Under the pieces are notes generated by a model, which searched no databases, was not told the DNA's origin, and worked only from the letters and a program-made list of their open reading frames with translations. A stretch of 64,000 nucleotides of DNA from Planctomycetota bacterium. Its GTDB lineage: Bacteria > Planctomycetota > MHYJ01 > JACPRB01. The position numbers and the translations under genes were made by a program. Positions 1 through 17,215 of the stretch are shown here, in pieces; the stretch's first letter is position 1, and each line of letters starts with the position of its first letter. The DNA lies in contig JACPRC010000147.1 in the NCBI GenBank assembly GCA_016190175.1, positions 1,021 through 65,020 of the forward strand. Reading direction: 5' to 3'.

Positions 1-1713
1 GATCGGCTCTCCGGTCGGGACGCTCCAGATGCGCGCCGTCTTGTCCCAGCCTGCCGTGGCCAGTCGTTTCGAGTCGGGGCTGAACGCGACGCTCTGGACC
101 GTGCCTGAGTGCGGCATGGGCTTTCCGACCGGATCTCCGGTCGAAGCACTCCAGATCCGGGCCGTGCGATCTTTGCTGGCCGTCGCAATCCACAGCCCGT
201 CGGGGCTGAGGATCGCCATCGTGACCGGCTGTTCGTGAACCAGGATCGTCTGGAGTCCCGGCAAGCTCCGCACCGCGCGAACGGCGTTCGCCCGCGCAGG
301 GTCCGAGGCGTGTGCCGAAAAGGACTCGACATGGAAGATCGCCGCCGCGGCATCGTCGCCGGATCCGGCCGCCTGCCGGGCCTGCATGCGATAGACGTGC
401 GAGAGCCGTTCGTTCGCGCGGTCTCTCTCGGTCCGGGTGCGGCGCTGTTCCGCCTCGACCTGTTCCCGCCCTTCCCTCTCCGCCCGCGCCTTCTCCCCCG
501 CGACCCTCGCCGCGTTCTCGGCCTCCCGCTTCGCCCGCAGGAGCTGCCATGTCCCGAACGCCGCCCCGCCCGCGATCGCCAGCACCATCGCCGCCCCGAA
601 CGCCCACAGGAGCGGCTGCTTGCGGATCTTCTTCCCCAGCACGTACGCGAACGTCGGCCGCCGCGCGTGGCGCAGCGGATTGCCGTTCAGGCACGCGTCG
701 AGATCCTCGATCATCTGCGCCGCATCGACGTAGCGGCGCTTCTGGTCCTTCTCCAGCGCCCGGATGATCACCGCCTCCACGTCCGGCGGCGTCGCCGGCG
801 CCAACCGCCGCGGCCACACCAGATCCGCCGTCACCACCTGCGTCAGCACGTCCGCCGAACTCTCCCCCGCGAACGGCGGCCTCCCCGTGAAGAGCTCGTA
901 GAGAATCGCCCCGATCGAGTAGACGTCGCTCTGCGCCGTCGCCTTTCCCCGCGCCTGCTCCGGCGCCATGTAGTTCGGCGTCCCCACCACCACGTTCGTC
1001 CCGGTCAGCGTTTCCCCCTCCACCGACGTCTCCTTCGCCAGCCCGAAATCCATCACGAACACCTGGCCGTTGCGGTCCAGCATCACGTTCGTCGGCTTCA
1101 GGTCCCGGTGGATCACCTTCCGCTCGTGCGCGCACCTCACCGCCTCCGCGATCTTCGCGACGGCGCGCAGCTTCTCCTCCGTCTTCAGCTTCGCCTTCGA
1201 CAACGTCTCCCCGTCCACGAACTGCATCGCGATGAACGGCGACCCGTCCTGCTCCCCGATCTCGTAGATCTTCGCGATGTTCGGATGGTCCAGCGCCGCC
1301 GCGAGCTGCGCCTCCCGCCGGAAGAACGCCCGCGCCTGCTCGTCCCCGATCTGCTTGAGGAACTTCAGCGCCACCCACTGCCGCAGCTCCGGCTCCCATC
1401 CGCGGTAGACAAGCCCCATGCCGCCGGAGCCGAGGGGGGCGACGCGCCAGTAGCGCCCGACGCGGTTCGCCGGGTCCTTCATTGCCTCGGCCGCCTCGGG
1501 TGGGACGGGGCGCGAGGGCGGCTCCTGAAGCTCGCGGAGGCGTTCGGGCGTAAGGGGCAGGTGCGCCAGGAGGCGCGTCCCGGGGTCGCGGTCGCGCGAC
1601 ACCATCGCGGCCTCGACCTGCTCGCGCGTGAGCCACCCGCGATCGACCGCGCGCTTCGCGAGCGCGAAGTCCGCGTCCGAGTCGGGGCCTGTAACGGGAG
1701 CAGTATCGGACAC
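1..1713 (-). CDS. Hanks-type Ser/Thr protein kinase with C-terminal WD40 repeats (partial, runs off window start)
   Basis: Not in the ORF track because it has no stop in the window. Manual minus-strand translation from GTG 1713 gives LGSGGMGLVY, VIHRDLKPTNV, VMDFGLAK, GTPNYMAPEQ, SDVYSIGA, a hydrophobic helix, then a WD40 unit (HSGTVQSVAFSPDSKRLATAGWDKTARIW). Confidence 0.93.
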   Translation of the reverse strand, partial: MSDTAPVTGPDSDADFALAKRAVDRGWLTREQVEAAMVSRDRDPGTRLLAHLPLTPERLRELQEPPSRPVPPEAAEAMKDPANRVGRYWRVAPLGSGGMGLVYRGWEPELRQWVALKFLKQIGDEQARAFFRREAQLAAALDHPNIAKIYEIGEQDGSPFIAMQFVDGETLSKAKLKTEEKLRAVAKIAEAVRCAHERKVIHRDLKPTNVMLDRNGQVFVMDFGLAKETSVEGETLTGTNVVVGTPNYMAPEQARGKATAQSDVYSIGAILYELFTGRPPFAGESSADVLTQVVTADLVWPRRLAPATPPDVEAVIIRALEKDQKRRYVDAAQMIEDLDACLNGNPLRHARRPTFAYVLGKKIRKQPLLWAFGAAMVLAIAGGAAFGTWQLLRAKREAENAARVAGEKARAEREGREQVEAEQRRTRTERDRANERLSHVYRMQARQAAGSGDDAAAAIFHVESFSAHASDPARANAVRAVRSLPGLQTILVHEQPVTMAILSPDGLWIATASKDRTARIWSASTGDPVGKPMPHSGTVQSVAFSPDSKRLATAGWDKTARIWSVPTGEPI

Positions 1714-1901
1714 GATTCGATGGGATTATACCCCGGCAGGGTGCCTTGCGCGGTTCCGGTTCCGGGGATATCATTCCTGGGTCTTTATCCGCAACATCCG
1801 CGCGCCCGATGCGGATACCACTTGGGGTCCGGTGCATTCCCCGATGGGGACGGCAGGGCCGACGGTCGGTTGCGGGCAAGATCCCGCATCAGGGGAGACG
1901 A

Positions 1902-2339
1902 ATGGCGGACGACGCTTCGACGCTCGATCGACGCTCGTTTCTCGCCACGGTCCTGCGCGCCGCCGGCGTGCTGGCGCCCGCTTCGCTCCTCCTGTCCGGC
2001 CGGCTTCCATGGCTCGATGGCGACGAGACCCGGCTGGATGCCGCGCGGGTGCCCGTCTGGCATCCTGAATGCACAGGGACGAACGATCTTCGGTGCGTGA
2101 CCGTCTCCCGCGACCGGGCCGGCGGCTCGCGCTCCGAGATCCGACTCGAGGGCGCGGCGGCCCGCCTCTGGTGCCTCTGCGGCGGACGCTACTCGGAGAC
2201 CGAGCTGGCGGCGCGGGTCGCCGAGGGCGAGCCGTGGGTCGCCCCCTTCCTTTTCGCCCTGTACGCACTCGGGTATCTCGTGCGCCTGAACGCGGAGGAT
2301 CGCGTCGGCCTCTGGAGTCGAGAGGTCGAAATCGCATGA
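1902..2339 (+). CDS. Stand-alone PqqD/RRE-like peptide chaperone with N-terminal twin-arginine (Tat)-like signal
   Basis: ATG 1902 follows GGGGAG. N-terminus has DRRSFL plus a hydrophobic stretch. C-terminus LEGAAARLWCLCGGRYSETELAARV...VAPFLFALYALGYL fits the PqqD winged-helix pattern. ATGA overlap with the next gene. Confidence 0.75.
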   Translation: MADDASTLDRRSFLATVLRAAGVLAPASLLLSGRLPWLDGDETRLDAARVPVWHPECTGTNDLRCVTVSRDRAGGSRSEIRLEGAAARLWCLCGGRYSETELAARVAEGEPWVAPFLFALYALGYLVRLNAEDRVGLWSREVEIA

Positions 2340-3724
2340 CCGACCGGTACGTCCTGACGACCGAGTTCTTCGCGGTCCCGTACTGCGAGGACACGTTCCT
2401 CCTCTACTCGCCGCTCAAGCAGATCCTGATCCTCGCGAACACGGAGATGGTGGACATGGTCGCGGCGCTCCGCGACGGCACGTTCGCCGGCGTGGACGGC
2501 GCCAACATGGACGCGATGCAGCTCCTCCTCGAGTCCGGCGCGATCAACGGCACCCCGGATGAACCGCCGCGGCGTCCGCCGGCGGCCGAGTGGAAGCCCA
2601 CCGAGGTCACGCTCTTCCTCACCAACGCGTGCAACCTCCGCTGCTCCTACTGCTACGCCTCGGGAGGGGATTCCTCCGGCACGATGGAGGTCGCAACCGC
2701 CCTGGCGGCGGTGGACCTCGTCGTCCGCAACGCATCCGAACTGCATGCACCGGAGGTCCGCGTCTCCTACCACGGCGGCGGCGAGCCCACGCTGACATGG
2801 GAAGCGCTGACCGCGAGCGCGCTCCGCGCCGAGGAGTCCGCCGCGCGCCACGGACTGCGCGCTTCGATCAACCTGGCTACCAACGGCGTCATGCCCGCGC
2901 GGAAGGTGGACTGGCTCGTGCGCCACGTCCACGAGTTCTCCGTCTCGTGGGACGGACCCGCGTGGGTGCAGGACCTCCACCGCCCGACGGCCGCGGGCCG
3001 CGGCTCGGCCGAGACGGTCGAGGCCACGATGCGCCATCTCGACAGCCACGGCGCGCGCTGGGGCGTTCGTCTCACCGTCACCGAGACCGGCGTGGACCGA
3101 CTCGAGGAGATCGTCGAGTACCTCCTGCGCCGGTTCTCGCCCTCGACGGTCCACATCGAGCCGCTCTTCGCGCACGGTCGCGCGCGGGAGCGGGGCCTGC
3201 GCGCCCCGCATGCGCGCGCGTTCGTGGAGAACTTCCGGAAGGCGCAGCGCGTCGCCGATCGGCGCGGGATCGACCTCTACTATTCCGGCGCCCGGTCCGA
3301 GCTGGTCACCGACACGTTCTGCGCCGTGCCGGAGGGGACCTTCAACGTCACGCCGGAGGGACTCCTGACGTCGTGCTTCGAAGCCTGCCGTCCGGGCGAC
3401 CCGTTCGTCTACGGCGCGTTCGAAGGCGGCGAATTCAGGATCTCGCGCCCGAAACTCGACGCGCTGGCCGCACACACGGTGGAGGCGCGACCCGAATGCG
3501 CCCGCTGCTTCTGCAAGCGGCACTGCGCCGGCGACTGCGCCGCGAAGAACCTGACGTCGGACCTTCATCCGGACGAGAGACTCAAGGCCGCGCGCTGCGC
3601 GATCAACCAGGAGCTGACCCGCGACCAGCTCGTGCGGCGGCTGCGGGAGAAGAGCCGGATGATGGCGCAGGTAGAGGCCATGCTCGGTGCGCCCCCGGCC
3701 CTCGAGGAGATGCGTCATGCCTGA
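2336..3724 (+). CDS. Radical SAM/SPASM peptide maturase
   Basis: CNLRCSYC (CX3CX2C) and YHGGGEPTL. SPASM cysteines FC..SC..CARCFCKRHCAGDC..RC. N-terminal ~80-aa extension may be an RRE. Confidence 0.93.
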   Translation: MTDRYVLTTEFFAVPYCEDTFLLYSPLKQILILANTEMVDMVAALRDGTFAGVDGANMDAMQLLLESGAINGTPDEPPRRPPAAEWKPTEVTLFLTNACNLRCSYCYASGGDSSGTMEVATALAAVDLVVRNASELHAPEVRVSYHGGGEPTLTWEALTASALRAEESAARHGLRASINLATNGVMPARKVDWLVRHVHEFSVSWDGPAWVQDLHRPTAAGRGSAETVEATMRHLDSHGARWGVRLTVTETGVDRLEEIVEYLLRRFSPSTVHIEPLFAHGRARERGLRAPHARAFVENFRKAQRVADRRGIDLYYSGARSELVTDTFCAVPEGTFNVTPEGLLTSCFEACRPGDPFVYGAFEGGEFRISRPKLDALAAHTVEARPECARCFCKRHCAGDCAAKNLTSDLHPDERLKAARCAINQELTRDQLVRRLREKSRMMAQVEAMLGAPPALEEMRHA

Positions 3725-4094
3725 TCCCAACGACTTCGCGCCGCGCCAGTCCGGGAAGGAGAAGCGCAAGGGCCCGAAGGCCCACGCGTTCGTGAAGCCG
3801 GACCTCGAGGTCCACATCGACGAGCGGCAGCTCCAGCGCAAGGACGACGACCTCGTGCTCGTCTGCCGGTGCGACACCGTCTGCACCTGCAACACGGTCG
3901 TCACCGGCCGCACGCGCTGCCGCTGCGACACGGTGTCGAAGTGCACCTGCGAGGCGGTCCAGACCTGCACCTGCAACACGGTGATGGTCTGCTCCTGCGA
4001 TTCCGTGAAGAAGAGCTCGTGCAGTTGCGACAGCCATTCGCCGGGCGGGGGCGGCTCGCGCGTGTGCCGCTGCGTCCCGGTCCGGGCGCATTGA
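3717..4094 (+). CDS. Putative RiPP precursor (125 aa): charged leader with FVKPDL motif, core with 8 CxC repeats (16 Cys)
   Basis: GAGGAG RBS before ATG 3717 and 8-nt overlap with the rSAM gene. Core units CRCDTV, CTCNTV, CRCDTV, CTCEAV, CTCNTV, CSCDSV, CSCDSH, CRCVPV. Lies between two rSAM/SPASM genes. Confidence 0.85.
   Translation: MPDPNDFAPRQSGKEKRKGPKAHAFVKPDLEVHIDERQLQRKDDDLVLVCRCDTVCTCNTVVTGRTRCRCDTVSKCTCEAVQTCTCNTVMVCSCDSVKKSSCSCDSHSPGGGGSRVCRCVPVRAH
3864..4082 (+). repeat. Eight degenerate 18-bp coding repeats (TGC-NNN-TGC-...) within the precursor core
   Basis: e.g. tgccggtgcgacaccgtc, tgcacctgcaacacggtc, tgccgctgcgacacggtg, tgcacctgcaacacggtg. Confidence 0.85.
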
Positions 4095-4101
4095 GCCGGA
4101 T

Positions 4102-5211
4102 ATGACCAAACCGGGAACGATGGCGAAGGACGGGACGCTCTACGACCCCGTCGCGGACTTCCGCTTCCGCCCCGGCCCGGACGACCGCGCGTGGGACGGA
4201 GGCCGGCTGCGGTTCGACCGCTACCACGCGGCGCAGCGGTTCCGCCCGCATCAGGACGGTCGCGAGGTCAATCTGGAGATCAACTACCTCTGCCGCTACG
4301 CGTGCCGCCACTGCTTCCAATCGCTCCGGCCCGATTCGTATCCCGAGGCGACGCCCGATGCGGCGGCCGTGATCGCCGCGGCGGAGCGCGTCGCGGCGGC
4401 CGAGGAGATCTCGATCACGGGCGGCGACATCTTCCTCCAGCCGGCGGTCTGGGAGGCGCTCGACTTCCTGCAGGAGCGCGCGCCCCGCGCGACGATCCGG
4501 CTCCTCGTGAACGGCGGCGGATTCGACGACGAAGTCCGCCGGCGCCTGGCGCGACTCGAAGGGCGGCGGATCATCGTCAAGTCGGACTTCTACGGGCACA
4601 ATCCCCGCCTCCACGACGAGTTCACCGGCGTGCCGGGTTCGTTCGACCGTCTTGTCCGCATCGCGCGGTTCCTCCGCGAGACCGGGATCGCGTTCGTCGC
4701 CGCGGCGGCGCTGACCCGCGCGGACTTCGAGACGCGCTTCGAGCTGGTCGGATTCCTCGGCGATCTCACCGAGGATCGATTCACCGTCGCGTCCGCGATC
4801 CACCCGGGTCGCTCCGCCGACGAGGCGCGTCTCCTGCCGGAGCAGTTCGCGGAGCTCATGGAGGAGCGGTTCTTCGCGCCGCTGGCCGCGGAGTATCACT
4901 CGTTCGAGCCGCAGTGCGCCGGCGACTGCCAGTTCGCGGTCGTGTCTGCGAACGGAAAGGCGTGGGGTTGCTCGTTCCTGAAGCTCGACTCGGAGCCGAT
5001 CGCCGCCTGGCGCGAGCGGGCCGTCGCGGCCGCGTCCACGGCGGACTGCGCGACCTGCTCGGCCCGCGCCACGTGTCGCCGATGCCCCTCCTTCCTCGCG
5101 GCCCGGGATTCCTATTGCCGCTTCGTGCGGCTCGCGCATCCGGGTCTCCTCGAGCGCGTCCGCCGCGCGCAAGAGGAAGGCTTCGCGTTCGTCCATCCCG
5201 GGAGATCGTGA
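4102..5211 (+). CDS. Second radical SAM/SPASM enzyme (PqqE-like)
   Basis: CRYACRHC, ITGGD and HDEFTGVPGSF. C-terminal CAGDC..GC..CATCSARATCRRC..YC SPASM motif. Confidence 0.9.
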   Translation: MTKPGTMAKDGTLYDPVADFRFRPGPDDRAWDGGRLRFDRYHAAQRFRPHQDGREVNLEINYLCRYACRHCFQSLRPDSYPEATPDAAAVIAAAERVAAAEEISITGGDIFLQPAVWEALDFLQERAPRATIRLLVNGGGFDDEVRRRLARLEGRRIIVKSDFYGHNPRLHDEFTGVPGSFDRLVRIARFLRETGIAFVAAAALTRADFETRFELVGFLGDLTEDRFTVASAIHPGRSADEARLLPEQFAELMEERFFAPLAAEYHSFEPQCAGDCQFAVVSANGKAWGCSFLKLDSEPIAAWRERAVAAASTADCATCSARATCRRCPSFLAARDSYCRFVRLAHPGLLERVRRAQEEGFAFVHPGRS

Positions 5212-5214
5212 ACC

Positions 5215-5460
5215 ATGGCGACACAGGGATCGAACAAGGACGCCGCGCTGGGATGCGGATGTCTGATCCTCATCCTCGTCGCCGTCGTGGTCCTCGTCCT
5301 CAAGGGATGCTCGGGCTGCGGCTGCAGCCGGAAGTCCGAACCCCAATCCAAGTACGAGAACACGCGCAAGGTCGAGCAGGTCCGGGAGGAAGAGCCCGAG
5401 AAGATCCAGAAGAATGAAAGCCGGTACGATCGGGTCCCGCGATCGAAGGTCAAGAAATGA
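5215..5460 (+). CDS. Small single-pass membrane protein with Cys clusters flanking the TM helix
   Basis: GCGC-LILILVAVVVLVLK-GCSGCGC followed by a charged tail. 3-nt gap upstream, ATGA overlap downstream. Confidence 0.7.
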   Translation: MATQGSNKDAALGCGCLILILVAVVVLVLKGCSGCGCSRKSEPQSKYENTRKVEQVREEEPEKIQKNESRYDRVPRSKVKK

Positions 5461-6902
5461 GATGCGCGCTGGTCCGTCCCGCCCACCGCTCCTCGGGCTA
5501 CGACGAGGGGACGCAGGAATGCCTCGGGATCGGCTACGTCGGCGCCGTCCTGCGGGAGCGCGGACACGAGGTCGTCGTCGTGGACGCCGAGATGGAGAAG
5601 CTGGCGGACCGCGAGGCTTTCGAGCGCGTGGCCGCGTCCGATCCCGGCCTGATCGGTTTCTCCGTGATGAGCGAGGACGCGCTGGACAGCCTGCGACGGC
5701 TCGCGCGCGACCTGCGGGAGGCGTTTCCGCGGGCGCATCTCACCGCGGGAGGCAACCTGCCCAGCTTCGACCCCGAGTGGATCCTGCGGCTCTGCCCCGG
5801 CATCGACAGCGTGATCCGATTCGAGGGCGAGCGACCGCTGCTGGAACTCGCCGAACGACTCCGGAGCGGGAGGGACTTCCGGGCCGTTCCGCCGGCGGCA
5901 TCCGTGGACGACCTGGACGCGCTGCCGTTCCCGATCCGCGACACGCTGCCCATCGCGCTGAAGAACGGGTGGATGGCGCCCATCTCGTCGAGCCGCGGGT
6001 GCCACGCGAGGTGCTCCTTCTGCGCCGTGCATCGCTTCAACCTCGATCCCGCACGACCCTGGCGGTTCCGCAGTCCCGCCGGGGTCGCGGACGAGATCGA
6101 CGGGCTCGTCGCGGACTTCGGCGTCCGCGAGGTCAACTTCGTGGACGACGATTTCATCGGCAACCGGAAGCAGGGGCAGCCGCGCGCGCGCGAGCTGGCC
6201 GCCGAGTTGATCCGCCGCGGATTGAAAGTCGGTTTCTCGCTGCAGTGCCGCGCCGAGTGGATCGATCGCGCCACCTTCCGCCCGCTCAAGGCCGCCGGGC
6301 TCCGGATGGTCTTCTTCGGCGTCGAGGCCGTGGACGAGGAGAGCCGCCGGAGATACGGGAAGCCGCAGTCGCGCGAGCTCGTGCGGCGCACGCTGGAGCT
6401 GCTCGACGAGCTGGACGTGTACGCCCACGTCGGCTTCATCATGTTCAACCCCTGGACCCGCCTGGAGGACGTGCGCGAGGCCGTGGAGTTCCTGCGCGAC
6501 ATCGGCCATCTCAACATCCACACCGCGACGAATTTCCTCCAGTTGAGTCCGGGGACGCCGCTGCTGGAACCGCTCGCCGCCGGCGGCATGGCGTTCCGCG
6601 AGCCGCACGGAGGCTACCGCTGGTCGTTCGCCGATCCCCGCACCGCGTCGGTGAAGGCGGTCTTCGATCGCGTGCTCTGGCCGCAGTTCCCCGCCTGGTA
6701 CGAGTCGCTGATGGCGAAGTGGAGCGTGCTGACGGCGCGGCGGTCGGACGAACGATGCGCGCATGACCTGCGCCGCATGGACGACCTCGTCCACGATGTG
6801 GCGATCCGCACGCTCGACGCGATCGAGTCGGACCCCGGGGTCGATCTCTTCGCGCTGGTGCGCGAGCTTTCGGAAAGGACGGCATGCGCAGCGCGCTCCT
6901 GA
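5457..6902 (+). CDS. Cobalamin (B12)-binding radical SAM enzyme (class B methyltransferase-like)
   Basis: N-terminal B12-binding domain (LGIGYVGAVLRERGHEV, GGNLPS, FEGE). SSRGCHARCSFC, FVDDDF, FFGVE, GFIMFNP. Confidence 0.93.
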   Translation: MRCALVRPAHRSSGYDEGTQECLGIGYVGAVLRERGHEVVVVDAEMEKLADREAFERVAASDPGLIGFSVMSEDALDSLRRLARDLREAFPRAHLTAGGNLPSFDPEWILRLCPGIDSVIRFEGERPLLELAERLRSGRDFRAVPPAASVDDLDALPFPIRDTLPIALKNGWMAPISSSRGCHARCSFCAVHRFNLDPARPWRFRSPAGVADEIDGLVADFGVREVNFVDDDFIGNRKQGQPRARELAAELIRRGLKVGFSLQCRAEWIDRATFRPLKAAGLRMVFFGVEAVDEESRRRYGKPQSRELVRRTLELLDELDVYAHVGFIMFNPWTRLEDVREAVEFLRDIGHLNIHTATNFLQLSPGTPLLEPLAAGGMAFREPHGGYRWSFADPRTASVKAVFDRVLWPQFPAWYESLMAKWSVLTARRSDERCAHDLRRMDDLVHDVAIRTLDAIESDPGVDLFALVRELSERTACAARS

Positions 6903-8002
6903 TCGCCTGTCTTCTCGCGCAGGACCCGGCGGAGGATTTCGCGCGGGCCGTCTCCGAGATGAAGGCGAAGCGATGGGAGGAGGGGCGCGCCATCCTGGAC
7001 CGGCTCGTCCGCGCGCGGCCGGACGACCACGAGGCGCGCAACAACCTCGCGGTCTGTCTCATCAAGCTCCGCCGCTACGGCGAGGCGGAGTTCCACCTTC
7101 TGCGGGTTCTCCGGGCGGCGCCCGACAAGGCGGGGAGTCACTTGAACTTGGGCGTGGCTCGCCAGGGGAATTCGCAGACGGATCTGGCGTTGAAGGACAC
7201 GGATCGGGCCGTCGACATGGGCAAGGCGCAGCGGCCGCCGACGCCGGACCAGACCGCGGCCGCGCTCTTCAATCGAGGGTGGCTCCTCGACGAGCTTGAG
7301 CGGTACGAGGACGCGGTCGCGGCCTACAAGGAGGCCCTCGGGCTGCGTCCCGAATATCCCCGCGCGTGGCTCGGACTGGCCGTCGCGTACGCGAAGATGG
7401 GACGGTACAAGGACGCCCGCGAGGCGCTTCGGGAGGCGAAGAGCCGGGAGCGGCTCGATCCCGAGATCGCCCCGCTGATCGAGCGGAACGGAATCGTCAT
7501 CGCGGAGATCGAGACGGAGATCGCCCCCGCTCCGTCCCGAATCGCGATTCCGTCGCCTGATCCGGCCCCCGCGGCCGCCCCGCGCCGCACGTTCTTCGCC
7601 GACGGGATGATCGGCGTGACGGGACTGTGGGATCGATCGAGGGGCTGGTCCGTCTTCGGATACGCGCTGCTCCACTGCGTGCTCCTGGGCGCGGCGCTGG
7701 CGCTGCTCGGGTCGCGGCAGCGCGGCGCCTCCGCGCTCTTCGGGGGCGCGGCCGTCCTGCTATTCCTGACGAGCTGGGGGTTCGCGGGTTGGGGCAAGTG
7801 GGGCGGGCTGCTCCTCGCGGCGGCGGTCAGCGTCGCGGCGGCGGAGCTGATGCGGGCGCGCGCGAGGGCGGCGCCGGTCCCCGCGGCGCCCACCCACATC
7901 GCCTGGGAGTGCGCGGACTGCGGAAGGAAGCTGCGCGCGGCGGCGGAGATGGCGGGCAAGTCGATCCGGTGCCCGCAGTGCGGTTGCGTGAAGAGGTTGT
8001 AG
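6884..8002 (+). CDS. TPR-repeat membrane protein with C-terminal zinc ribbon
   Basis: Signal-like N-terminus, about 5 TPR units (ARNNLAVCL, SHLNLGVA, ALFNRGWL, AWLGLAVA), Pro-rich linker, about 3 TM segments, then CADC...CPQC. Overlaps the B12-rSAM gene by 19 nt. Confidence 0.8.
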   Translation: MRSALLIACLLAQDPAEDFARAVSEMKAKRWEEGRAILDRLVRARPDDHEARNNLAVCLIKLRRYGEAEFHLLRVLRAAPDKAGSHLNLGVARQGNSQTDLALKDTDRAVDMGKAQRPPTPDQTAAALFNRGWLLDELERYEDAVAAYKEALGLRPEYPRAWLGLAVAYAKMGRYKDAREALREAKSRERLDPEIAPLIERNGIVIAEIETEIAPAPSRIAIPSPDPAPAAAPRRTFFADGMIGVTGLWDRSRGWSVFGYALLHCVLLGAALALLGSRQRGASALFGGAAVLLFLTSWGFAGWGKWGGLLLAAAVSVAAAELMRARARAAPVPAAPTHIAWECADCGRKLRAAAEMAGKSIRCPQCGCVKRL

Positions 8003-8003
8003 G

Positions 8004-8360
8004 CTACGTTCGGGACCAGAGCCCGACGCGGTTCCCGTTGGGGTCGCGGAAGATCGCGAAGAAGCCCCACTCGGGCCCCACCTGGGTCTTCTCCTGGACG
8101 ACCGACCCGCCCGCGGCGCGCACCTCGTCCAGCGTCGCAGGAATGTCCGCCACTTTGAGGTAGATGAGGATCCCGCCGTCGACCACCGGCTTCCTCGGAT
8201 CCAGTCCGCCTTCGAGCGAGTTCTCGCCGGTGCGGAAGATGCGGTAGTCGCCCGAAGGCGCGACGGTCCATCCGAAGACCGCGTGGTAGAAAGTCCCGGC
8301 TTTCCCGAGATCGGGTGCGGGGATTTCGAGGTAGCAGATGGGGGCGGGCGCGTCAGCCAT
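8004..8360 (-). CDS. VOC/glyoxalase-bleomycin resistance family protein
   Basis: ICYLEIPAPD..FYHAVFGW..IYLKVADI..AAGG..FRDPNGNRVGL. Confidence 0.9.
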   Translation of the reverse strand: MADAPAPICYLEIPAPDLGKAGTFYHAVFGWTVAPSGDYRIFRTGENSLEGGLDPRKPVVDGGILIYLKVADIPATLDEVRAAGGSVVQEKTQVGPEWGFFAIFRDPNGNRVGLWSRT

Positions 8361-8387
8361 TCCAGTCCTCCTCTCGTGCGTATGCGC

Positions 8388-8825
8388 TCATGCGGCGTTG
8401 CGCTGCGGGATGGGCCAGTTCGCGACCCCGGATATCATGAAGAGGTAGCCGCCCAGCGCGGCCATCGGGTGCAGAATCACGACCGACCTCCCGGATTCCG
8501 GATCGAGCCCCAGCGACGTGATGCCGAGGTCGCGGCCGAACGCGAGGAGAAGGAGACTTGCGGCGACCATCAGGCCGGCCCACAGCGGCGTCGCGGTCCA
8601 GAGGCGGGAGACCGGGCGGAACCTCAGGACGAGGCCCGCCCCGAGGGAAAGAAGGACGGACAGCGCGCTTCCGATGGCGGCCATGAAGGGCATGAGAATC
8701 ATGGAAAGAGGTCCGTCGTAGAACTGCTCGATCCAGGCAACCATATAGACCGCCCAGGCGAGCCAGAACGCCAGCGCGACCGAGATGGAGCGCCACAGCA
8801 GATTCCACCAGGGATCGCCGCGCAT
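8388..8825 (-). CDS. Hypothetical membrane protein (~4 TM)
   Basis: Hydrophobic ORF. Start placed at ATG 8825, 7 nt after a TAGGAT -10-like hexamer. Confidence 0.6.
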   Translation of the reverse strand: MRGDPWWNLLWRSISVALAFWLAWAVYMVAWIEQFYDGPLSMILMPFMAAIGSALSVLLSLGAGLVLRFRPVSRLWTATPLWAGLMVAASLLLLAFGRDLGITSLGLDPESGRSVVILHPMAALGGYLFMISGVANWPIPQRNAA

Positions 8826-8954
8826 CGACGCCATCCTACTGCATGACGGGCAAGATGTCGCCGCTTCCGGAGACCCGATTGGAGGAAGGCACGAATAAGG
8901 GCTTGTCCTGCGTAGCGCCACTGCCCGAGCGAAGCGAGGATGCGCGAAGCAGGA

Positions 8955-9029
8955 TCGGGGCGGCGGGATTTGAACCCACGACCTCTTGGTCCCGAACCAA
9001 GCGCTCTAGCCAGACTGAGCCACGCCCCG
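8955..9029 (-). tRNA. tRNA-Pro (anticodon CGG), CCA not encoded
   Basis: CGGGGCGTGGCTCAGTCTGGCTAGAGCGCTTGGTTCGGGACCAAGAGGTCGTGGGTTCAAATCCCGCCGCCCCGA forms a cloverleaf with GTTCAAATC T-loop and CTTGG/CCAAG anticodon stem. Confidence 0.97.
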
Positions 9030-9045
9030 GTGCCGAGGGAGCCGG

Positions 9046-9074
9046 ATTATAGGCCCGCAGTCGCAGGACTGCAA
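9046..9074 (-). promoter_or_regulatory. sigma70-type promoter of tRNA-Pro
   Basis: TTGCAG-17 nt-TATAAT on the minus strand just upstream of the tRNA. Confidence 0.75.
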
Positions 9075-9106
9075 GCGATAGTCGGCGTCCGCGAGGGCCT
9101 TCGGCA

Positions 9107-11026: not shown

Positions 11027-12403
11027 TCACTTTCTCACGGGCGTGACCTCGACCTTCACGGGCTGCCCGTACAGATCCGTGATCCTCGCGCAGAACCGCC
11101 ACTGGTCCGCGTTGTTCTCCACCTTCACGACGAGCAGGTTGCGCCCCTCCCGGAGCGGCATCCGGATGCAGTGGCGATCCGCCTCGAGCCCGCGGTGCTC
11201 GTGCTCGAAGTGCACCGTCTGCCCGTTCAGGAGGACCTTCGCGCTCGCGTCCTCCCCGAGGAAGAGCTTCACCCACTGGCGCTTCTTCGAGTAGACGTGC
11301 GTCGCCGCGTAGTAGATCCCGCGCGGGTTCCCCTTCGCGTGCGCCAGCAGGTCCACGACGTCCGTCCGGCTCTGCGCCAGTTCCCATCCCCGCAGGTCGA
11401 GATCGTCGCTCCCTTCCGCGACCAGCTCCGCCGACAGCCCGCGGTCCTCCCGGTTCTCGAAACGCGGCGAGAGGAGCCAGGTGCGGATGAACGGCGCCTG
11501 CGGCCGGCAGACGACCTCGCGCCACATCTGGGACGTGAAGTGGTCCTCCGCGTAGTGGCGGCGCCACGGGATCTCGTCCGCGCCCTCGACCTTCGGGCCG
11601 CCGTAGCAGGCGTCGTTCCTCATCTGGTTCGCGTCCGGAGCCCACACGACGTCCGGAAGGCCCGCGCGGCGGCGGACGAGCTGCACCGCATCCCACAGCC
11701 AGACCAGGAACTCCCATCCCCCCACGCCGGAATTCGATTCGGCCGCCTGGGCGCTCCACAGGAAGTTCGCATAGAGCATCCCCCGGAAGTTCGGCTCCGC
11801 GCGGAGCTGCCGATCCACGGGGAGTCCCTCCGCGACCAGGAGGTAGACCAGCACCAGGTCGAAATCGCCGTCCTTCAGCCTGGCGAGGCGGTTGCGCTCC
11901 AGGTCGTCGGGGTGCAGCCAGACGCCGGCGTCCGCCGGCGTGAGCGAGCGCACCTCCTCCTCGAGCGACACGACCTTGCCGTCGATCTTGACCATGCCGC
12001 GGGTCGATTCCCACACCGCGCGCTGGAACGCCTCGAACCCCTTCTGCACGTTGCGGGCGGTCGCGTCGGTCACGCGGTACCGGCAGACCTTCTGGTCGGC
12101 CGTCCGGTAGTTGACGTTGCGCGGCAGGAGCGCGAGGACTCGCCACCGGCCCGCCTTCGCCTCGTCCGCGTTCGGCGGGATCCTCTCATGGAGCCGGTGC
12201 AGCCGCCTGCGTGCCTCGATGCGCTCGTCGTTCGTCGCCCGGCAGGCGTCGAAGACCCGCTCGTAGCGGTAGAGCGCATCGGTCAGGCTGTCGGGGTCCT
12301 TTTCGAGGAAGGCGCCGGCCCGGAGGTGAAAAGCGGCGCGCGTCTCGTCCTCCTCCGCGGGGTCCTGGAGGAGGAGCAGGAGAACGGCGAAGGCGCCGGT
12401 CAT
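11027..12403 (-). CDS. Hypothetical exported protein with C-terminal beta-sandwich domain
   Basis: Short hydrophobic N-terminus (LLLLQD). C-terminal YYAATHVYS..LFLGEDASAKVLLNG..LREGRNLLVVKV pattern. Sits tightly between efp and serA. Confidence 0.7.
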   Translation of the reverse strand: MTGAFAVLLLLLQDPAEEDETRAAFHLRAGAFLEKDPDSLTDALYRYERVFDACRATNDERIEARRRLHRLHERIPPNADEAKAGRWRVLALLPRNVNYRTADQKVCRYRVTDATARNVQKGFEAFQRAVWESTRGMVKIDGKVVSLEEEVRSLTPADAGVWLHPDDLERNRLARLKDGDFDLVLVYLLVAEGLPVDRQLRAEPNFRGMLYANFLWSAQAAESNSGVGGWEFLVWLWDAVQLVRRRAGLPDVVWAPDANQMRNDACYGGPKVEGADEIPWRRHYAEDHFTSQMWREVVCRPQAPFIRTWLLSPRFENREDRGLSAELVAEGSDDLDLRGWELAQSRTDVVDLLAHAKGNPRGIYYAATHVYSKKRQWVKLFLGEDASAKVLLNGQTVHFEHEHRGLEADRHCIRMPLREGRNLLVVKVENNADQWRFCARITDLYGQPVKVEVTPVRK

Positions 12404-13859: not shown

Positions 13860-15365
13860 CTATTTCCCTGACAGACGTCTTCTTGCGCCACTCACTTGCC
13901 TGAGTTCGTCCTCATAGCGGCTTCGCTCTGGGCTGCCCTCTCGAAGGCCGGCAAGTGTCGCCGTCAAGACGCGCTCAGCGTATTCGAGGAGTCCAAGGCG
14001 TTCGGCTGTCGAACCGGGGTAGCCTTCAGATGTAGCTTGCCTAGCCAGCCCAAGAGCAGCACTTTCGGTAACTCGCGAATCAGGGTCCTCGCACAAGGCT
14101 CGAAGTACCTGCACTCGCGCATCTGTCACTCTCTCCACGGGTGACGGATAGCTGAGAAGCGAAGCTGTTCGCACCTTCACTGATGCGTCTCCCTCTTGGT
14201 TGAGAATCTGGATCCCTAGGCGAGGCGCATTATCAATCTCCATTGAAACGACGTCACTGTAGAACTTCGCAATCTCGATCCCAGCCGGATTGGACTGCCG
14301 TAGTTTCTGCAAGTAGGTCATATAGTTACCATTTGTGACAAAAGCGGCGACTGCTTCGGGGGCCTTACCGCGCAGAAGTGCAAAGATCCACTGACAGAGT
14401 TCAGAGTCGCTATCCGTGGCCATCACTCCCAGCAGTTGATCTGCCCAGCCGGGCGGACGAGTGGAGGTCATGACAATGACCCCTGTATCGCGAAGGGATC
14501 TCGGTGCTCCGGGGTCCATTACAAGCTCACACGCCAAGTCCACGTTGGGCACTCGGGTCTCTTCTTTGGCCAACAAGGAGAACAAGGTGCCTCTTATTCT
14601 CTCGTTGGAGCCTCTGCGCACGATGTCTCGTGCCCGATCTTGGAATTCGTTTGAATCGAGCACACCCAAGCAATTCCAGAACACCAGACCGGTGGAGAGA
14701 TTCAGTCCATTGTTCGCATCACTAGACGGCCTGAATCGCCCGTCGTAGAGTCCACCCGTTCGCTGAAGGACATCGATCCAGAATGCAGCTTGCGCCTTGC
14801 CGTTTGAATCCACAAGAGCGCCAGTCGGTGACTTCTCGAGCGGAACTACTGGGTTCATGATCGCAGATAATACTGCTGCTAGTACGAGGCGTTCGTCGGC
14901 ATGATGGAGGAGTTCCAGACCAACACTAGGCGATGCACTGCGCCAGCCTCCAAGCAAGATCAGGGCAAGGAACCTCGCGGGTCCTTGAGTCTCCTCGTCC
15001 AGTGCCAGCCTATTCAGACTCTCTAGGAGCGCCACCCTGTCTGCGGACACCATCATCTCATGATGGAGCGATTGGAGCAATTCGACGAGCGTGTCACCCG
15101 AGGCGCGATCTTCCAAGACGTCGAGCACGCGCCTAGCTAGTGCTTGAGCTGCCGAATGCCCTGAAAGTGATGGGCCAGTACCGCCACCTTGCCTATGAGC
15201 GTCGGTGGTTGCTGCCGTCCCCTCGGACGGCGGCCTAGCCTGCGGCACTGTTTGGCGTCCGAGGGGATCTCTCCGACCGGCGGGAGCCAGGACCGCCAGT
15301 ACAAGGGCGACTAGAGGAATGCCCAAGAGCGCTGCTCGGATGTGCCACCCAAGAGCGCGTCCCAC
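13860..15365 (-). CDS. Hypothetical membrane-anchored HEAT-repeat-like protein (lower GC)
   Basis: 501-aa ORF with N-terminal TM and HEAT-like motifs (DPDSRVTESAALGL). Atypical codon usage. Confidence 0.7.
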   Translation of the reverse strand: MGRALGWHIRAALLGIPLVALVLAVLAPAGRRDPLGRQTVPQARPPSEGTAATTDAHRQGGGTGPSLSGHSAAQALARRVLDVLEDRASGDTLVELLQSLHHEMMVSADRVALLESLNRLALDEETQGPARFLALILLGGWRSASPSVGLELLHHADERLVLAAVLSAIMNPVVPLEKSPTGALVDSNGKAQAAFWIDVLQRTGGLYDGRFRPSSDANNGLNLSTGLVFWNCLGVLDSNEFQDRARDIVRRGSNERIRGTLFSLLAKEETRVPNVDLACELVMDPGAPRSLRDTGVIVMTSTRPPGWADQLLGVMATDSDSELCQWIFALLRGKAPEAVAAFVTNGNYMTYLQKLRQSNPAGIEIAKFYSDVVSMEIDNAPRLGIQILNQEGDASVKVRTASLLSYPSPVERVTDARVQVLRALCEDPDSRVTESAALGLARQATSEGYPGSTAERLGLLEYAERVLTATLAGLREGSPERSRYEDELRQVSGARRRLSGK

Positions 15366-15402
15366 TCACTCACCTGATGACCAACTAGTGGCCAAGCGAC
15401 GG

Positions 15403-16560
15403 CTATTTCTTGTTGGGAACCCGGCGGACATCCTTACCATTCCACCCGGACCAGGTGGACGGTTCTCCTATCTTGATATTGTCGTTCTTGGCTGCGTCTT
15501 CGAATGGTTTCAGTCCGCTGAAGTCATCATCGGCGCCAGCGGGGAACTTCGTGACGCGACATCGTGAAGGCAACTCTGTAGTGGCGTCGTTCTTCACGGC
15601 CAGTTTCTTGGTGATCGAAATCGTACCCTTGGAAGCCTTCTCGCCGATGACCTGAAGATACTCCGCACCAATGTCCATTCGGTACACAAATCGGTCGGAA
15701 CTCCCATCGTCATCGGTATCGACTCTGGCGTAGGTCGCGAACTCCAGCTTGCGGATTTCCTTATCCCCCTCGTGAACTCGGATGCCCCCCACCGTGGCAA
15801 GAAACTCCTGGCCCTTTTTCTGCGGCCGCGAAGTCCTCTCGTACATCAGCGGAAGATCGAACATGACCATGGCCGTGAACTTCGATTGCTGATTCTCCCG
15901 AAGCCGCCACTGAGCTGGATACACCAGATTGATGTCAAAACGCGGCAACGAGGTCGGCTTCTCCGTTCCAAGCGCGTGATGGGGCTCTGGTTCCCACTGC
16001 CCCCGTATCTTGTCATCCTTGTCGAGCAGCTTCTCTTCAAATGTCGTGATGACTTGAGAGAACGTCCCATTCATGACCCGGGAGCTTACAACGTACGCGA
16101 ACGCGATACCCCATGCCTTGAGAGGTGTCAGGTTCGGATCCGGATCGACATCGACGAAGGGATCCCGGTTCGCAAAGAAGAGCTCCGCAGGATCGGTCTC
16201 GGGTACTACCGTGGAGAAGACCTCCAAGAGGAATTTCGCTCCCTTGTTCGGCGTAACGCCCTGATTCGCACACGGCTCGTTCTCTCCGAACTGCGCGACA
16301 CCCGTGCCACCAAGATCGCGTAGCGCCATAGTGATCTTGCTTCCGCCGGCGAACTTGATGAACATCTCGGATTCGGTAACCCTGACTGCGGCGATGACGC
16401 CCAAGTCGCCAGCGTCGAATGGCCCGAGGACGAAATCAGCCCTACTGTGAGCTGCTTCAGGTGTGGAGATTTTCTGCGCAGAGCACTCATTTTGGGACAT
16501 CAGTGCGAAAAGCGGCACGAACAGAAGGATGCCAACGAGTCTGGAACTGCCTCTTCGCAC
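15403..16560 (-). CDS. Hypothetical secreted protein (lower GC)
   Basis: GTG 16560 follows GAGGG. Signal peptide VRRGSSRLVGILLFVPLFALMSQNECSA. Confidence 0.7.
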   Translation of the reverse strand: MRRGSSRLVGILLFVPLFALMSQNECSAQKISTPEAAHSRADFVLGPFDAGDLGVIAAVRVTESEMFIKFAGGSKITMALRDLGGTGVAQFGENEPCANQGVTPNKGAKFLLEVFSTVVPETDPAELFFANRDPFVDVDPDPNLTPLKAWGIAFAYVVSSRVMNGTFSQVITTFEEKLLDKDDKIRGQWEPEPHHALGTEKPTSLPRFDINLVYPAQWRLRENQQSKFTAMVMFDLPLMYERTSRPQKKGQEFLATVGGIRVHEGDKEIRKLEFATYARVDTDDDGSSDRFVYRMDIGAEYLQVIGEKASKGTISITKKLAVKNDATTELPSRCRVTKFPAGADDDFSGLKPFEDAAKNDNIKIGEPSTWSGWNGKDVRRVPNKK

Positions 16561-16750
16561 GTGACCCTCTTCTGAGTGATCAGGCAATTTGCAATCATAG
16601 CTGCGCGGTGCGAAAATGCAAGGCCAATCCACCTTGCTTCCTCTGGACGTGGCAGGTGAGGCGCGATCGGTCGTCGAGGGAGACAAAGAGGCGCGGAGTC
16701 GGCCATCGGCCGCGCTTCGTCCTGCCTGCGTGAGCCCCATCGCCGATGGC

Positions 16751-17215
16751 CTACGCCCTCTCGGGCCCCTCGTACACCCAGTTCGCGTCCGCCGGCGACC
16801 AGGCGACGACCTCTTCGGGCCTGAAGAAGATCGGGATCTCGCGCTGCGCGGACTCCGGCGAGTCCGACCCGTGGACGAGGTTGAACCCCTTCGACGTCCC
16901 GAAGTCGCCCCGGATCGTTCCGGGCGCCGCGTCGTATCCGAACGTCGCGCCGAGGAGCGCGCGGACCACCTTGATCGCGTACGCGCCCTCGATCACCATC
17001 ACGACGACCGGCGACGACGTGACGAACTTCACGAGGCCGTCGTAGAAGGGCTTGCCCTTGTGGACGGAGTAAAGCTCCGTCGCCTGGGACTCCTTCATCG
17101 AGAGGAGCTTGAGGCCCGCGACGCGGAGCCCCTTCTCCTCGATGCGGTTCACGATGCGGCCCACCAGCCTGCGCTGGACGCCGTCCGGCTTGATCATCAC
17201 GAAGGTGCGTTCCAT
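16751..17215 (-). CDS. ndk: Nucleoside diphosphate kinase
   Basis: MERTFVMIKPDG, HKGKPFY, PGTIRGDF, NLVHGSDS. Confidence 0.97.
   Translation of the reverse strand: MERTFVMIKPDGVQRRLVGRIVNRIEEKGLRVAGLKLLSMKESQATELYSVHKGKPFYDGLVKFVTSSPVVVMVIEGAYAIKVVRALLGATFGYDAAPGTIRGDFGTSKGFNLVHGSDSPESAQREIPIFFRPEEVVAWSPADANWVYEGPERA

Follow-up and report, generated by a model that had tools for sequence, protein, structure and literature searches.

A cysteine-pair repeat gene lies within an operon of radical SAM genes

In a 64,000-nucleotide stretch of DNA from a Planctomycetota bacterium (assembly GCA_016190175.1, contig JACPRC010000147.1, positions 1,021 to 65,020 of the forward strand; hereafter the window, to which positions refer unless a locus or contig is named), we analysed a short open reading frame (ORF) at 3717-4094 on the forward strand, which encodes 125 amino acids and ends in a TGA stop codon, together with the operon around it. 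The genes of the operon are closely packed and translationally coupled, all lie on the forward strand and encode, in order, a PqqD-like chaperone, a radical S-adenosylmethionine (SAM) enzyme (rSAM1), the ORF product, a second radical SAM enzyme (rSAM2), a small membrane protein, a vitamin B12-binding radical SAM enzyme (B12-rSAM) and a TPR protein. An earlier note on this DNA had read the ORF as the precursor of a radical SAM-modified peptide, and we refer to its product as the precursor. The host genome is a 64%-complete metagenome-assembled genome (MAG), and the nearest named related locus comes from a Planctomycetota MAG.

The precursor consists of a 49-residue leader with two boxes, eight units of the form C-x-C-[D/N/E/V]-x-V, a GGGG linker and the terminal sequence CRCVPVRAH. 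The leader (residues 1-49) is devoid of Cys, the first Cys being residue 50, and its boxes are PNDFAPR at residues 4-10 and PKAHAFVKPDLEV at residues 20-32, the motif FVKPDL occupying residues 25-30. The core (residues 50-125; 76 amino acids) contains 16 Cys, every one of them in one of eight CxC pairs, and its units read, in order, CRCDTV, CTCNTV, CRCDTV, CTCEAV, CTCNTV, CSCDSV, CSCDSH and CRCVPV. Position 4 of the unit is D, N or E in seven of eight cases and position 6 is Val in seven of eight; the last unit, CRCVPV, is preceded by SPGGGGSRV. Translation thus bears out the composition given in the earlier note, namely a Cys-free 49-residue leader with FVKPDL, 16 Cys all in CxC pairs of which seven are followed by D, N or E, and a last unit set apart behind a PGGGG linker.

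That the ORF is a chance, untranslated frame in DNA of 70% GC, in which long ORFs occur in all frames, is exceedingly improbable, and the evidence effectively refutes it. The GC content at codon positions 1, 2 and 3 is 0.58, 0.53 and 0.95 in this frame, and a third-position value of 0.95 is seen in the precursor frame only. Compared with the 62%-identical homologue in the related locus L002, the ratio of non-synonymous to synonymous substitution rates is 0.31 (0.25 for the core and 0.37 for the leader) and the codons differ at 33 of the 80 identical residues. A Shine-Dalgarno-like GAGGAG lies ~7 nucleotides 5' of the ATG, which overlaps the 3' end of the upstream rSAM1 gene by 8 nucleotides, one of several overlapping gene junctions in the operon; 12 homologues and 49 profile matches, described below, likewise argue against a chance frame. 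The CxC pattern was also compared with shuffled sequences: shuffled cores contained a mean of 3.1 CxC and at least eight in 351 of 200,000 shuffles, and shuffles of the whole precursor gave at least eight in 7 of 200,000, conservation being the stronger evidence for the pattern. Because Tandem Repeats Finder detected no DNA-level tandem repeat in 3700-4110, the units are old and maintained at the protein level. We conclude that the ORF is a genuine, conserved coding gene. Four DNA runs, all from one groundwater-metagenome study, contain the stretch; no RNA run is among them, which is neutral either way. No curated family in Pfam or NCBIfam matched the precursor, and in the ESM Atlas there was no usable feature match, the model having a pLDDT of 0.38 and all structure matches a TM score below 0.4.

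Five distinct related loci (L002, L005, L006, L007 and L008; L004 is the same contig as L002) were compared with the window by tblastn. An rSAM1 gene adjoins the precursor gene in all five, only the last 42 amino acids of rSAM1 being present at the contig edge of L006, and rSAM2 follows the precursor in the four loci that have downstream DNA. B12-rSAM follows rSAM2 in three of three (L002, L005 and L006), the TPR gene after it being detected by tblastn in two of these (39.6% identity in L002 and 30.9% in L005) and by eye in L006. Upstream, a PqqD gene with a twin-arginine motif precedes rSAM1 in the window and in L005, L007 and L008, that is, in all four with upstream DNA. Each related locus therefore keeps the order of enzyme and precursor genes over the part that its contig covers. 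The earlier placement of the precursor among radical SAM genes accordingly proves to be a conserved feature, with two SPASM-type enzymes flanking it and B12-rSAM downstream, and homologues standing free of such genes, which the note had allowed for, were not seen in this branch. The position of a conserved Cys-rich gene inside an operon of three radical SAM enzymes and a chaperone makes it most likely that its product serves as substrate for an undescribed peptide-crosslinking pathway of this groundwater planctomycete.

The repeat and the leader boxes define a rare family

A search of 5.8 billion proteins retrieved 12 relatives of the precursor with 29-72% identity. Nine are close (61-72% identity; two of these are fragments) and three are distant (29-36% identity; 171-177 amino acids) and end in the same way as the precursor. 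The comparison of repeat numbers among homologues that had been suggested for this peptide gives 10-14 CxC units in the distant relatives and eight here. In an alignment of 11 sequences, the Cys of the shared units, the leader residues P9, P20 and P28, and the C-terminal V-C-x-C-V-P-V...H are invariant. The FxxPxL leader motif emphasised earlier is indeed conserved, as F-x-x-P-x-[LM], down to the 29-36%-identical relatives, in which it appears as YVKPEM; the leader holds two conserved boxes rather than this one alone.

In the close group, 68 of 80 units have D, N or E at position 4 and 67 of 80 have Val at position 6; the corresponding numbers for the distant group are 80 of 119 and 94 of 119, and across the subtypes described below they span 54-85% and 56-84% of units, respectively. 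Val is the best conserved non-Cys residue of the units, the spacing of which is mostly 6 or 8 residues in the family. Each Cys of a pair thus has a conserved residue at i+3: D, N or E for the first Cys and Val for the second. Of the unit C-x-C-[D/N/E]-[T/S/A]-V as first formulated, positions 4 and 6 stand while position 5 does not: Thr at position 5 was considered as a conserved target and rejected, distant relatives commonly having L, R, P or K there.

A profile search of 1.84 billion representative sequences yielded 49 matches. We classified 60 sequences, comprising 47 newly retrieved ones (P0025-P0071) and 13 from the first search, the query included. Among these, 37 terminate with C-x-C-[V/A/H]-P-V-(0-2 residues)-H, all 37 lacking an internal RRxF, and 13 terminate with [H/T/S]-Y-W-Y-P-N or a close variant. 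In seven of the 13 YWYPN-type sequences, RR-x-F-[LIV] and a hydrophobic stretch follow the leader-like box, and an eighth has RKDFL. In six of these RR/RK proteins (P0039, P0042, P0052, P0057, P0064 and P0070), which are 419-505 amino acids long and include all of that size, a WD40 propeller lies between the signal and the CxC repeats, giving the order leader-like box, RRxF signal, WD40, CxC-[D/N]-x-V repeat and GGG-HYWYPN end; P0041, P0043, P0051 and P0061 are shorter, propeller-less forms of the HYWYPN type. The remaining 10 of the 60 comprise the fragment P0009, three proteins with other C-termini (P0031, P0040 and P0065) and six (P0029, P0046, P0047, P0056, P0058 and P0067) that were set aside by eye as unrelated low-complexity repeat proteins. 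All three subtypes share leader box 1, P-[N/D]-D-[R/F]-x-P-[K/R], and, ~10 residues after it, leader box 2, P-[K/Q/E]-[I/V]-[Y/F]-x-[F/I/L]. NCBIfam models matched just two of the superfamily proteins, namely P0061, which has a match to a Tat-signal model, and P0039, which has three matches at chance level. Two distant relatives, P0027 and P0030 (265 and 267 amino acids), carry an N-terminal SHD1 domain before the leader boxes (PF03983, 9.2e-19 and 1.2e-13).

Searching 400 other Planctomycetota genomes with three subtype profiles returned only the window's own gene; a match in genome G018 (E 4.6e-5) was rejected as spurious, having an internal TGA and no CxC units in its ORFs. We found no rSAM1 orthologue in the 20 nearest genomes, among them the same-genus genome G125 (92% complete), the best other proteins being partial matches of 25-37% identity. 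The family is thus rare, and the distribution of the cluster is patchy across the 400 and the 20 nearest genomes. Because the GC content of the operon (0.70) equals that of its flanks, the operon bears no mark of a recent island. Genomic context was seen for the precursor branch, not for the HYWYPN/WD40 subtype or for most CAPVH-type peptides, and a subtype-B-like locus was visible in L008 only.

rSAM1 resembles thioether-forming maturases

rSAM1 (2336-3724, forward strand) is a 462-residue radical SAM/SPASM peptide maturase (PF04055, 4.4e-13) with an N-terminal extension of ~90 residues that is, by eye, like a recognition element (RRE) of peptides that are made on the ribosome and modified after translation (RiPPs). 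Its best NCBIfam match is PapB (6.9e-33), covering model positions 4-323 of 330, followed by Nif11 maturases, QhpD-type enzymes and SCIFF maturases; the CrpC-type model TIGR04463 scored 59.1 bits (cut-off 525). The closest solved chain is CteB (5wgg; 3.4e-14, residues 92-411): CNLRCSYC of rSAM1 aligns with the CxxxCxxC motif of CteB, and the alignment spans the C-terminal Cys-rich SPASM region (...CARCFCKRHCAGDCAA). The SPASM auxiliary-cluster pattern comprises 7 Cys. A likeness to ranthipeptide enzymes, which the earlier note had proposed, is accordingly found in the enzyme adjacent to the precursor. Three more SPASM-type relatives, each 28-35% identical to part of rSAM1, are encoded elsewhere in the same genome (C115:18035-18997, C74:16396-16911 and C228:38945-39982) and may be other peptide-modification loci.

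rSAM2 (4102-5211, forward strand; 369 residues) matches PF04055 (5.1e-11) and has a SPASM-like C-terminal set of Cys. Its best NCBIfam match, under the cut-off, is the GeoRSP radical SAM/SPASM family (2e-14). Across 11 sequences, C64, C68 and C71 (CxxxCxxC), C272, C276, G285, C290, C316, C325, C328 and C339 are invariant and C319 is nearly so. The protein is shorter than eight close orthologues (428-453 residues): ~40 residues at the N-terminus are missing, as are the tail and an insert of 21 residues that the orthologues have in the SPASM region. All invariant Cys are present. With an AlphaFold2 (AF2) model of pLDDT 75.4, the top Foldseek matches were BlsE, SuiB, CteB, viperin-like proteins (ranks 4, 8 and 12), anSME and SkfB, with query-normalised TM scores of 0.46-0.57.

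The apparent 245-nucleotide gap between rSAM2 and B12-rSAM is occupied by an ORF of 81 amino acids (5215-5460, forward strand), which starts 4 nucleotides past the rSAM2 stop codon and overlaps the B12-rSAM start as ATGA. Its product has GCGC and GCSGCGC (CxC) around a hydrophobic helix, a charged tail and no Pfam match. A homologue lies at the same place in L002 (~3361-3603; tblastx 1.4e-11); in L005 and L006, rSAM2 and B12-rSAM abut, which leaves no space for such an ORF. B12-rSAM (5457-6902, forward strand; 481 residues) is a class B radical SAM enzyme with matches to PF02310 (7.5e-21, 74.6 bits) and PF04055 (3.5e-18, 66.7 bits), both over the cut-off; its closest solved chain is OxsB (5ul2, 1.4e-13), and its nearest NCBIfam models, all under the cut-off, include further B12-rSAM families besides BchE and HpnR. 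The TPR gene (6884-8002, forward strand) overlaps the 3' end of B12-rSAM by 19 nucleotides and encodes a 372-residue membrane protein that matches many TPR Pfam families and has a hydrophobic N-terminus, hydrophobic C-terminal segments and a ribbon-like CxxC...CxxC end. We note that, by eye, this protein and an unannotated 458-residue protein encoded at 11027-12403 on the reverse strand both begin with a short hydrophobic stretch and L-x-Q-D-P-A-E-[E/D], possibly a sorting or signal motif common to the two.

A working model for maturation of the precursor

On the basis of these comparisons, which support the earlier interpretation in part, we consider it reasonably probable that the ORF encodes the precursor of an uncharacterised family of radical SAM-modified cysteine-pair repeat peptides that would be ranthipeptide-like and multiply thioether-bridged. 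In our working model, the leader boxes would dock on RRE-type domains, one at the N-terminus of rSAM1 and another provided by the stand-alone PqqD protein, the latter serving rSAM2 and B12-rSAM. The two SPASM enzymes would take hydrogen from a side-chain carbon and join that carbon to a Cys sulfur. Because each Cys of the unit has one of the two conserved non-Cys positions exactly at its i+3 (C1-x-C-D and C3-D-x-V), we propose that each unit may acquire two overlapping i-to-i+3 thioether rings, one from the first Cys to D, N or E at position 4 and one from the second Cys to the Val of position 6. The atypical CRCVPV at the end would still offer an acceptor to each Cys, in both cases Val (V4 and V6). 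B12-rSAM would add a further modification, most simply C-methylation.

Published enzymes offer precedents for such linkages. PapB is reported to form Cys-Asp thioethers with 0-6 intervening residues, those with 1-5 going to completion (PMC9413430). CrpC, a SPASM radical SAM enzyme, is described as acting on a Cys protein rich in repeats, in which it modifies the motifs CAVD, CPLV(L) and (A)CAGM; two of these sites, narrowed to CAGM and CPLV, span from Cys to i+3, Val included (PMC13692751). PapB is also reported to link Cys to the C-terminal residue in artificial substrates that end in D- or beta-amino acids (PMC12373016), which makes the invariant C-terminal His of the precursor family another, speculative, acceptor.

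Several observations weigh against this model. rSAM1 scores far under every family cut-off, the equivalog models included (114 of 340 bits for PapB, 89.6 of 425 for SCIFF and 94.4 of 453 for the QhpD type). It matches CteB at only one (Ser) of the six positions designated as in catalytic site proximity (positions taken from PMC10288494), the other five being Y, H or Y, A, F and E in rSAM1 versus F, F, T, H and Q in CteB, and for this reason ranthionine, sactionine or other chemistry cannot be called for rSAM1. The likeness of rSAM2 to SPASM/twitch enzymes is only generic, and the best matches of B12-rSAM are not RiPP methyltransferases but BchE and HpnR (NCBIfam, under the cut-off) and OxsB. 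The window's own chaperone copy has no match in Pfam or NCBIfam, and its AF2 model is poor (mean pLDDT 45), with the element order beta-beta-alpha-alpha-alpha. Finally, the even spacing of the units, with Cys on one face and D and Val on the other, would also fit a metal-binding beta-structure.

The low agreement with the residues lining the CteB active site would also fit a precursor that is a radical SAM substrate but undergoes a different reaction, such as sactionine formation (S to C-alpha), epimerisation of Cys or Val, conversion of Val to cyclopropylglycine, Cys oxidation or another B12-dependent reaction. We regard this as a possibility of some weight, though a minor one. It would suit the weak NCBIfam matches of rSAM1 to sactisynthases and cyclophane formers, the presence of SkfB, SuiB and anSME among the nearest folds of rSAM2, and the standing of Val as the best conserved non-Cys residue; RS-SPASM enzymes that convert Val to cyclopropylglycine in repeat peptides have been published (PMC9062424, PMC10878394). 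Set against this, the best whole-protein matches of rSAM1 are to the thioether formers PapB, QhpD-type, SCIFF and CteB, the paired Cys with D, N or E at i+3 is the pattern that thioether formers use, and sixteen invariant Cys are hard to explain unless Cys reacts.

The precursor might instead be a metallothionein-like or other metal- or Fe-S-binding peptide with free Cys, the neighbouring enzymes acting elsewhere or helping to load a cofactor, an alternative that the earlier note had also named and that we consider unlikely. CxC is a classic metal-thiolate motif, Tat export, at which the RR motifs hint, is typical of cofactor-loaded proteins, and the mostly even spacing (6 or 8) would line up every thiol on the same side of an extended chain; bacterial and eukaryotic metallothioneins, too, are high in Cys and have CxC motifs. 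The CrpA paper, moreover, ties its Cys-rich proteins to growth on pyrite (PMC13692751). Unlike metallothioneins, the precursor has a conserved 49-residue, two-box leader, a strict repeat with D, N or E and Val at i+3, for which there is no obvious role in thiolate clusters, and obligatory radical SAM neighbours along with PqqD/RRE domains in five of five loci; it matches neither metallothioneins nor any other Pfam or NCBIfam family. The conserved leader and the enzyme linkage thus weaken the idea of an unmodified metallothionein; the thioether model itself would allow the mature, modified product to bind metal.

A PqqD-like chaperone carries a twin-arginine motif

The first gene of the operon (1902-2339, forward strand) encodes a 145-residue PqqD-like (RRE) chaperone, and its stop codon overlaps the rSAM1 ATG as ATGA. 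The assignment comes from its orthologues, which supply the RRE-type domain anticipated for this system: the PqqD family PF05402 matches the L005 and L007 copies at 45 bits (cut-off 23.4) and is recorded for P0015 (38% identical), and a profile of five orthologues matches PqqD (5sxy, 7.9e-5) and the lasso chaperone TbiB1 (3.4e-4). Complex prediction of leader residues 1-49 with the PqqD domain (residues 45-145) gave a score of 0.00 in both runs, which counts neither for nor against binding.

The N-terminus of the chaperone reads DRRSFL, followed by a hydrophobic stretch. R10, R11 and F13 (R-R-x-F) are invariant in all five orthologues, each of which has the hydrophobic stretch: the window copy, L005 4796-5182, L007 1099-1482, L008 1831-2244 and P0015. 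The twin-arginine translocation (Tat) model TIGR01409 scored 13.8 bits (cut-off 16.7) on the L005 chaperone and did not match the window copy, and TatC is encoded in the same genome (1.2e-63). A very basic stretch follows the RR motif in the L007 chaperone, leaving the topology uncertain between a Tat signal and a membrane anchor. In the open-access literature searched, the Tat-motif chaperone is unreported, and none of the 15 best-matching of 104 papers joined a twin-arginine motif with PqqD or a RiPP recognition element.

The RR motif on the chaperone, and on the substrates of the WD40 branch, suggests Tat export, possibly escorted by the chaperone. The cluster is without a protease or ABC exporter, and comparison of the related loci revealed no conserved protease or transporter gene beside the operon. 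Given this lack of a protease and ABC exporter and the conserved RR motif of the chaperone, it is probable that Tat delivers the product to the envelope and that this is a small protein or a long, stapled peptide and not a short secreted antibiotic.

A broader proposal, which we put forward tentatively and regard as doubtful, is that CxC-[D/N]-x-V would be the hallmark of a broad unnamed superfamily of radical SAM-stapled envelope proteins with built-in Tat export. In the WD40 branch, the substrate would combine the leader box, its own twin-arginine signal, the WD40 propeller and CxC repeats ending in GGG-HYWYPN; in the precursor branch, the peptide would be signal-less, with the twin-arginine motif residing on the PqqD/RRE chaperone. 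Before export, this chaperone would present the leader to the radical SAM enzymes in the cytoplasm; it would then carry the crosslinked peptide over the membrane as a Tat 'hitchhiker'.

Genomic surroundings of the operon

Divergent from the operon and running off the window, a gene at 1-1713 on the reverse strand encodes a Ser/Thr protein kinase with a WD40 C-terminus. WD40 is also found fused to CxC repeats in the distant precursor relatives described above. By tblastn the kinase-WD40 gene was not conserved at the other related loci, and the adjacency may therefore be due to chance. A scan of 1600-9100 returned no promoter-like and two terminator-like sites, not above shuffles. A tRNA-Pro (CGG) gene lies at 8955-9029 on the reverse strand, ~950 nucleotides past the last operon gene. 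The GC content falls to 0.57 at 14-16 kb and to 0.63 at 16-18 kb, versus ~0.69 elsewhere in the window; the low-GC segment at ~14000-17000 contains two reverse-strand ORFs of 501 and 445 amino acids and is possibly foreign DNA.

Relation to known systems and implications

The precursor system probably belongs with the radical SAM/SPASM-modified Cys-rich RiPPs and has an unusual architecture; the searched open-access literature held no description of the precursor family or its end motifs. As in PapA/PapB (freyrasin), CteA/CteB (SCIFF, thermocellin) and QhpC/QhpD, a radical SAM/SPASM maturase adjoins a leader-bearing, Cys-rich precursor. With ranthipeptide systems it also shares the kinship of rSAM1, for which PapB is the best family and CteB the closest structure, and Cys followed by Asp, Asn or Glu a few residues on. 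In place of the single CX3D motifs of ranthipeptides, it has strict CxC pairs, 8-14 per peptide, with a conserved Val at i+3 of the second Cys and a conserved C-terminus, C-x-C-V-P-V-(x0-2)-H. It further differs in having two SPASM enzymes plus B12-rSAM and a separate PqqD protein with a twin-arginine motif, and in lacking genes for a protease or an exporter.

In having a small, separate and probably PqqD-fold protein beside a radical SAM/SPASM enzyme, the system resembles PqqA/PqqD, lasso B1 proteins and the PqqD of GeoRSP and SynChlorMet systems; the N-terminal R-R-x-F-[LV] and hydrophobic stretch of all five chaperone orthologues set them apart from known PqqD chaperones. We take the FVKPDL box to resemble the PqqA leader. 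It also fits the aromatic-x-x-P-x-L described in lasso leaders of actinobacterial origin (PMC6784204). The CrpA/CrpC system of Methanococcus voltae (TIGR04463), too, is reported to pair a large, repeat-rich Cys substrate having a leader-like N-terminus with a SPASM radical SAM enzyme that has an RRE, a setting like the one that rSAM1 appears to have, and the CrpA crosslinks at Cys-x-x-[D/M/V] have the i+3 geometry that we propose for the precursor units (PMC13692751). That system is archaeal, with a 17-residue repeat containing C-X-X-Q/D instead of CxC pairs, a single radical SAM enzyme and no B12 enzyme.

Radical SAM thioether peptides provide new enzyme chemistry as well as stable macrocycles. 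To these the family would add very dense repeats, in which up to 16-28 Cys occur and six residues may hold two interlocked rings, and the action of three radical enzymes on one substrate. Its putative substrates, from 92-residue peptides to 500-residue WD40 proteins, would blur the border between RiPPs and protein modification. Because no curated model matches the precursor, defining the family would improve annotation and genome mining. The RR motif on the chaperone and on the fused relatives provides a testable idea of how such products might leave the cell without a dedicated transporter; if true, Tat hitchhiking would give RiPP-like products a new way out of the cell and the RRE a second function.

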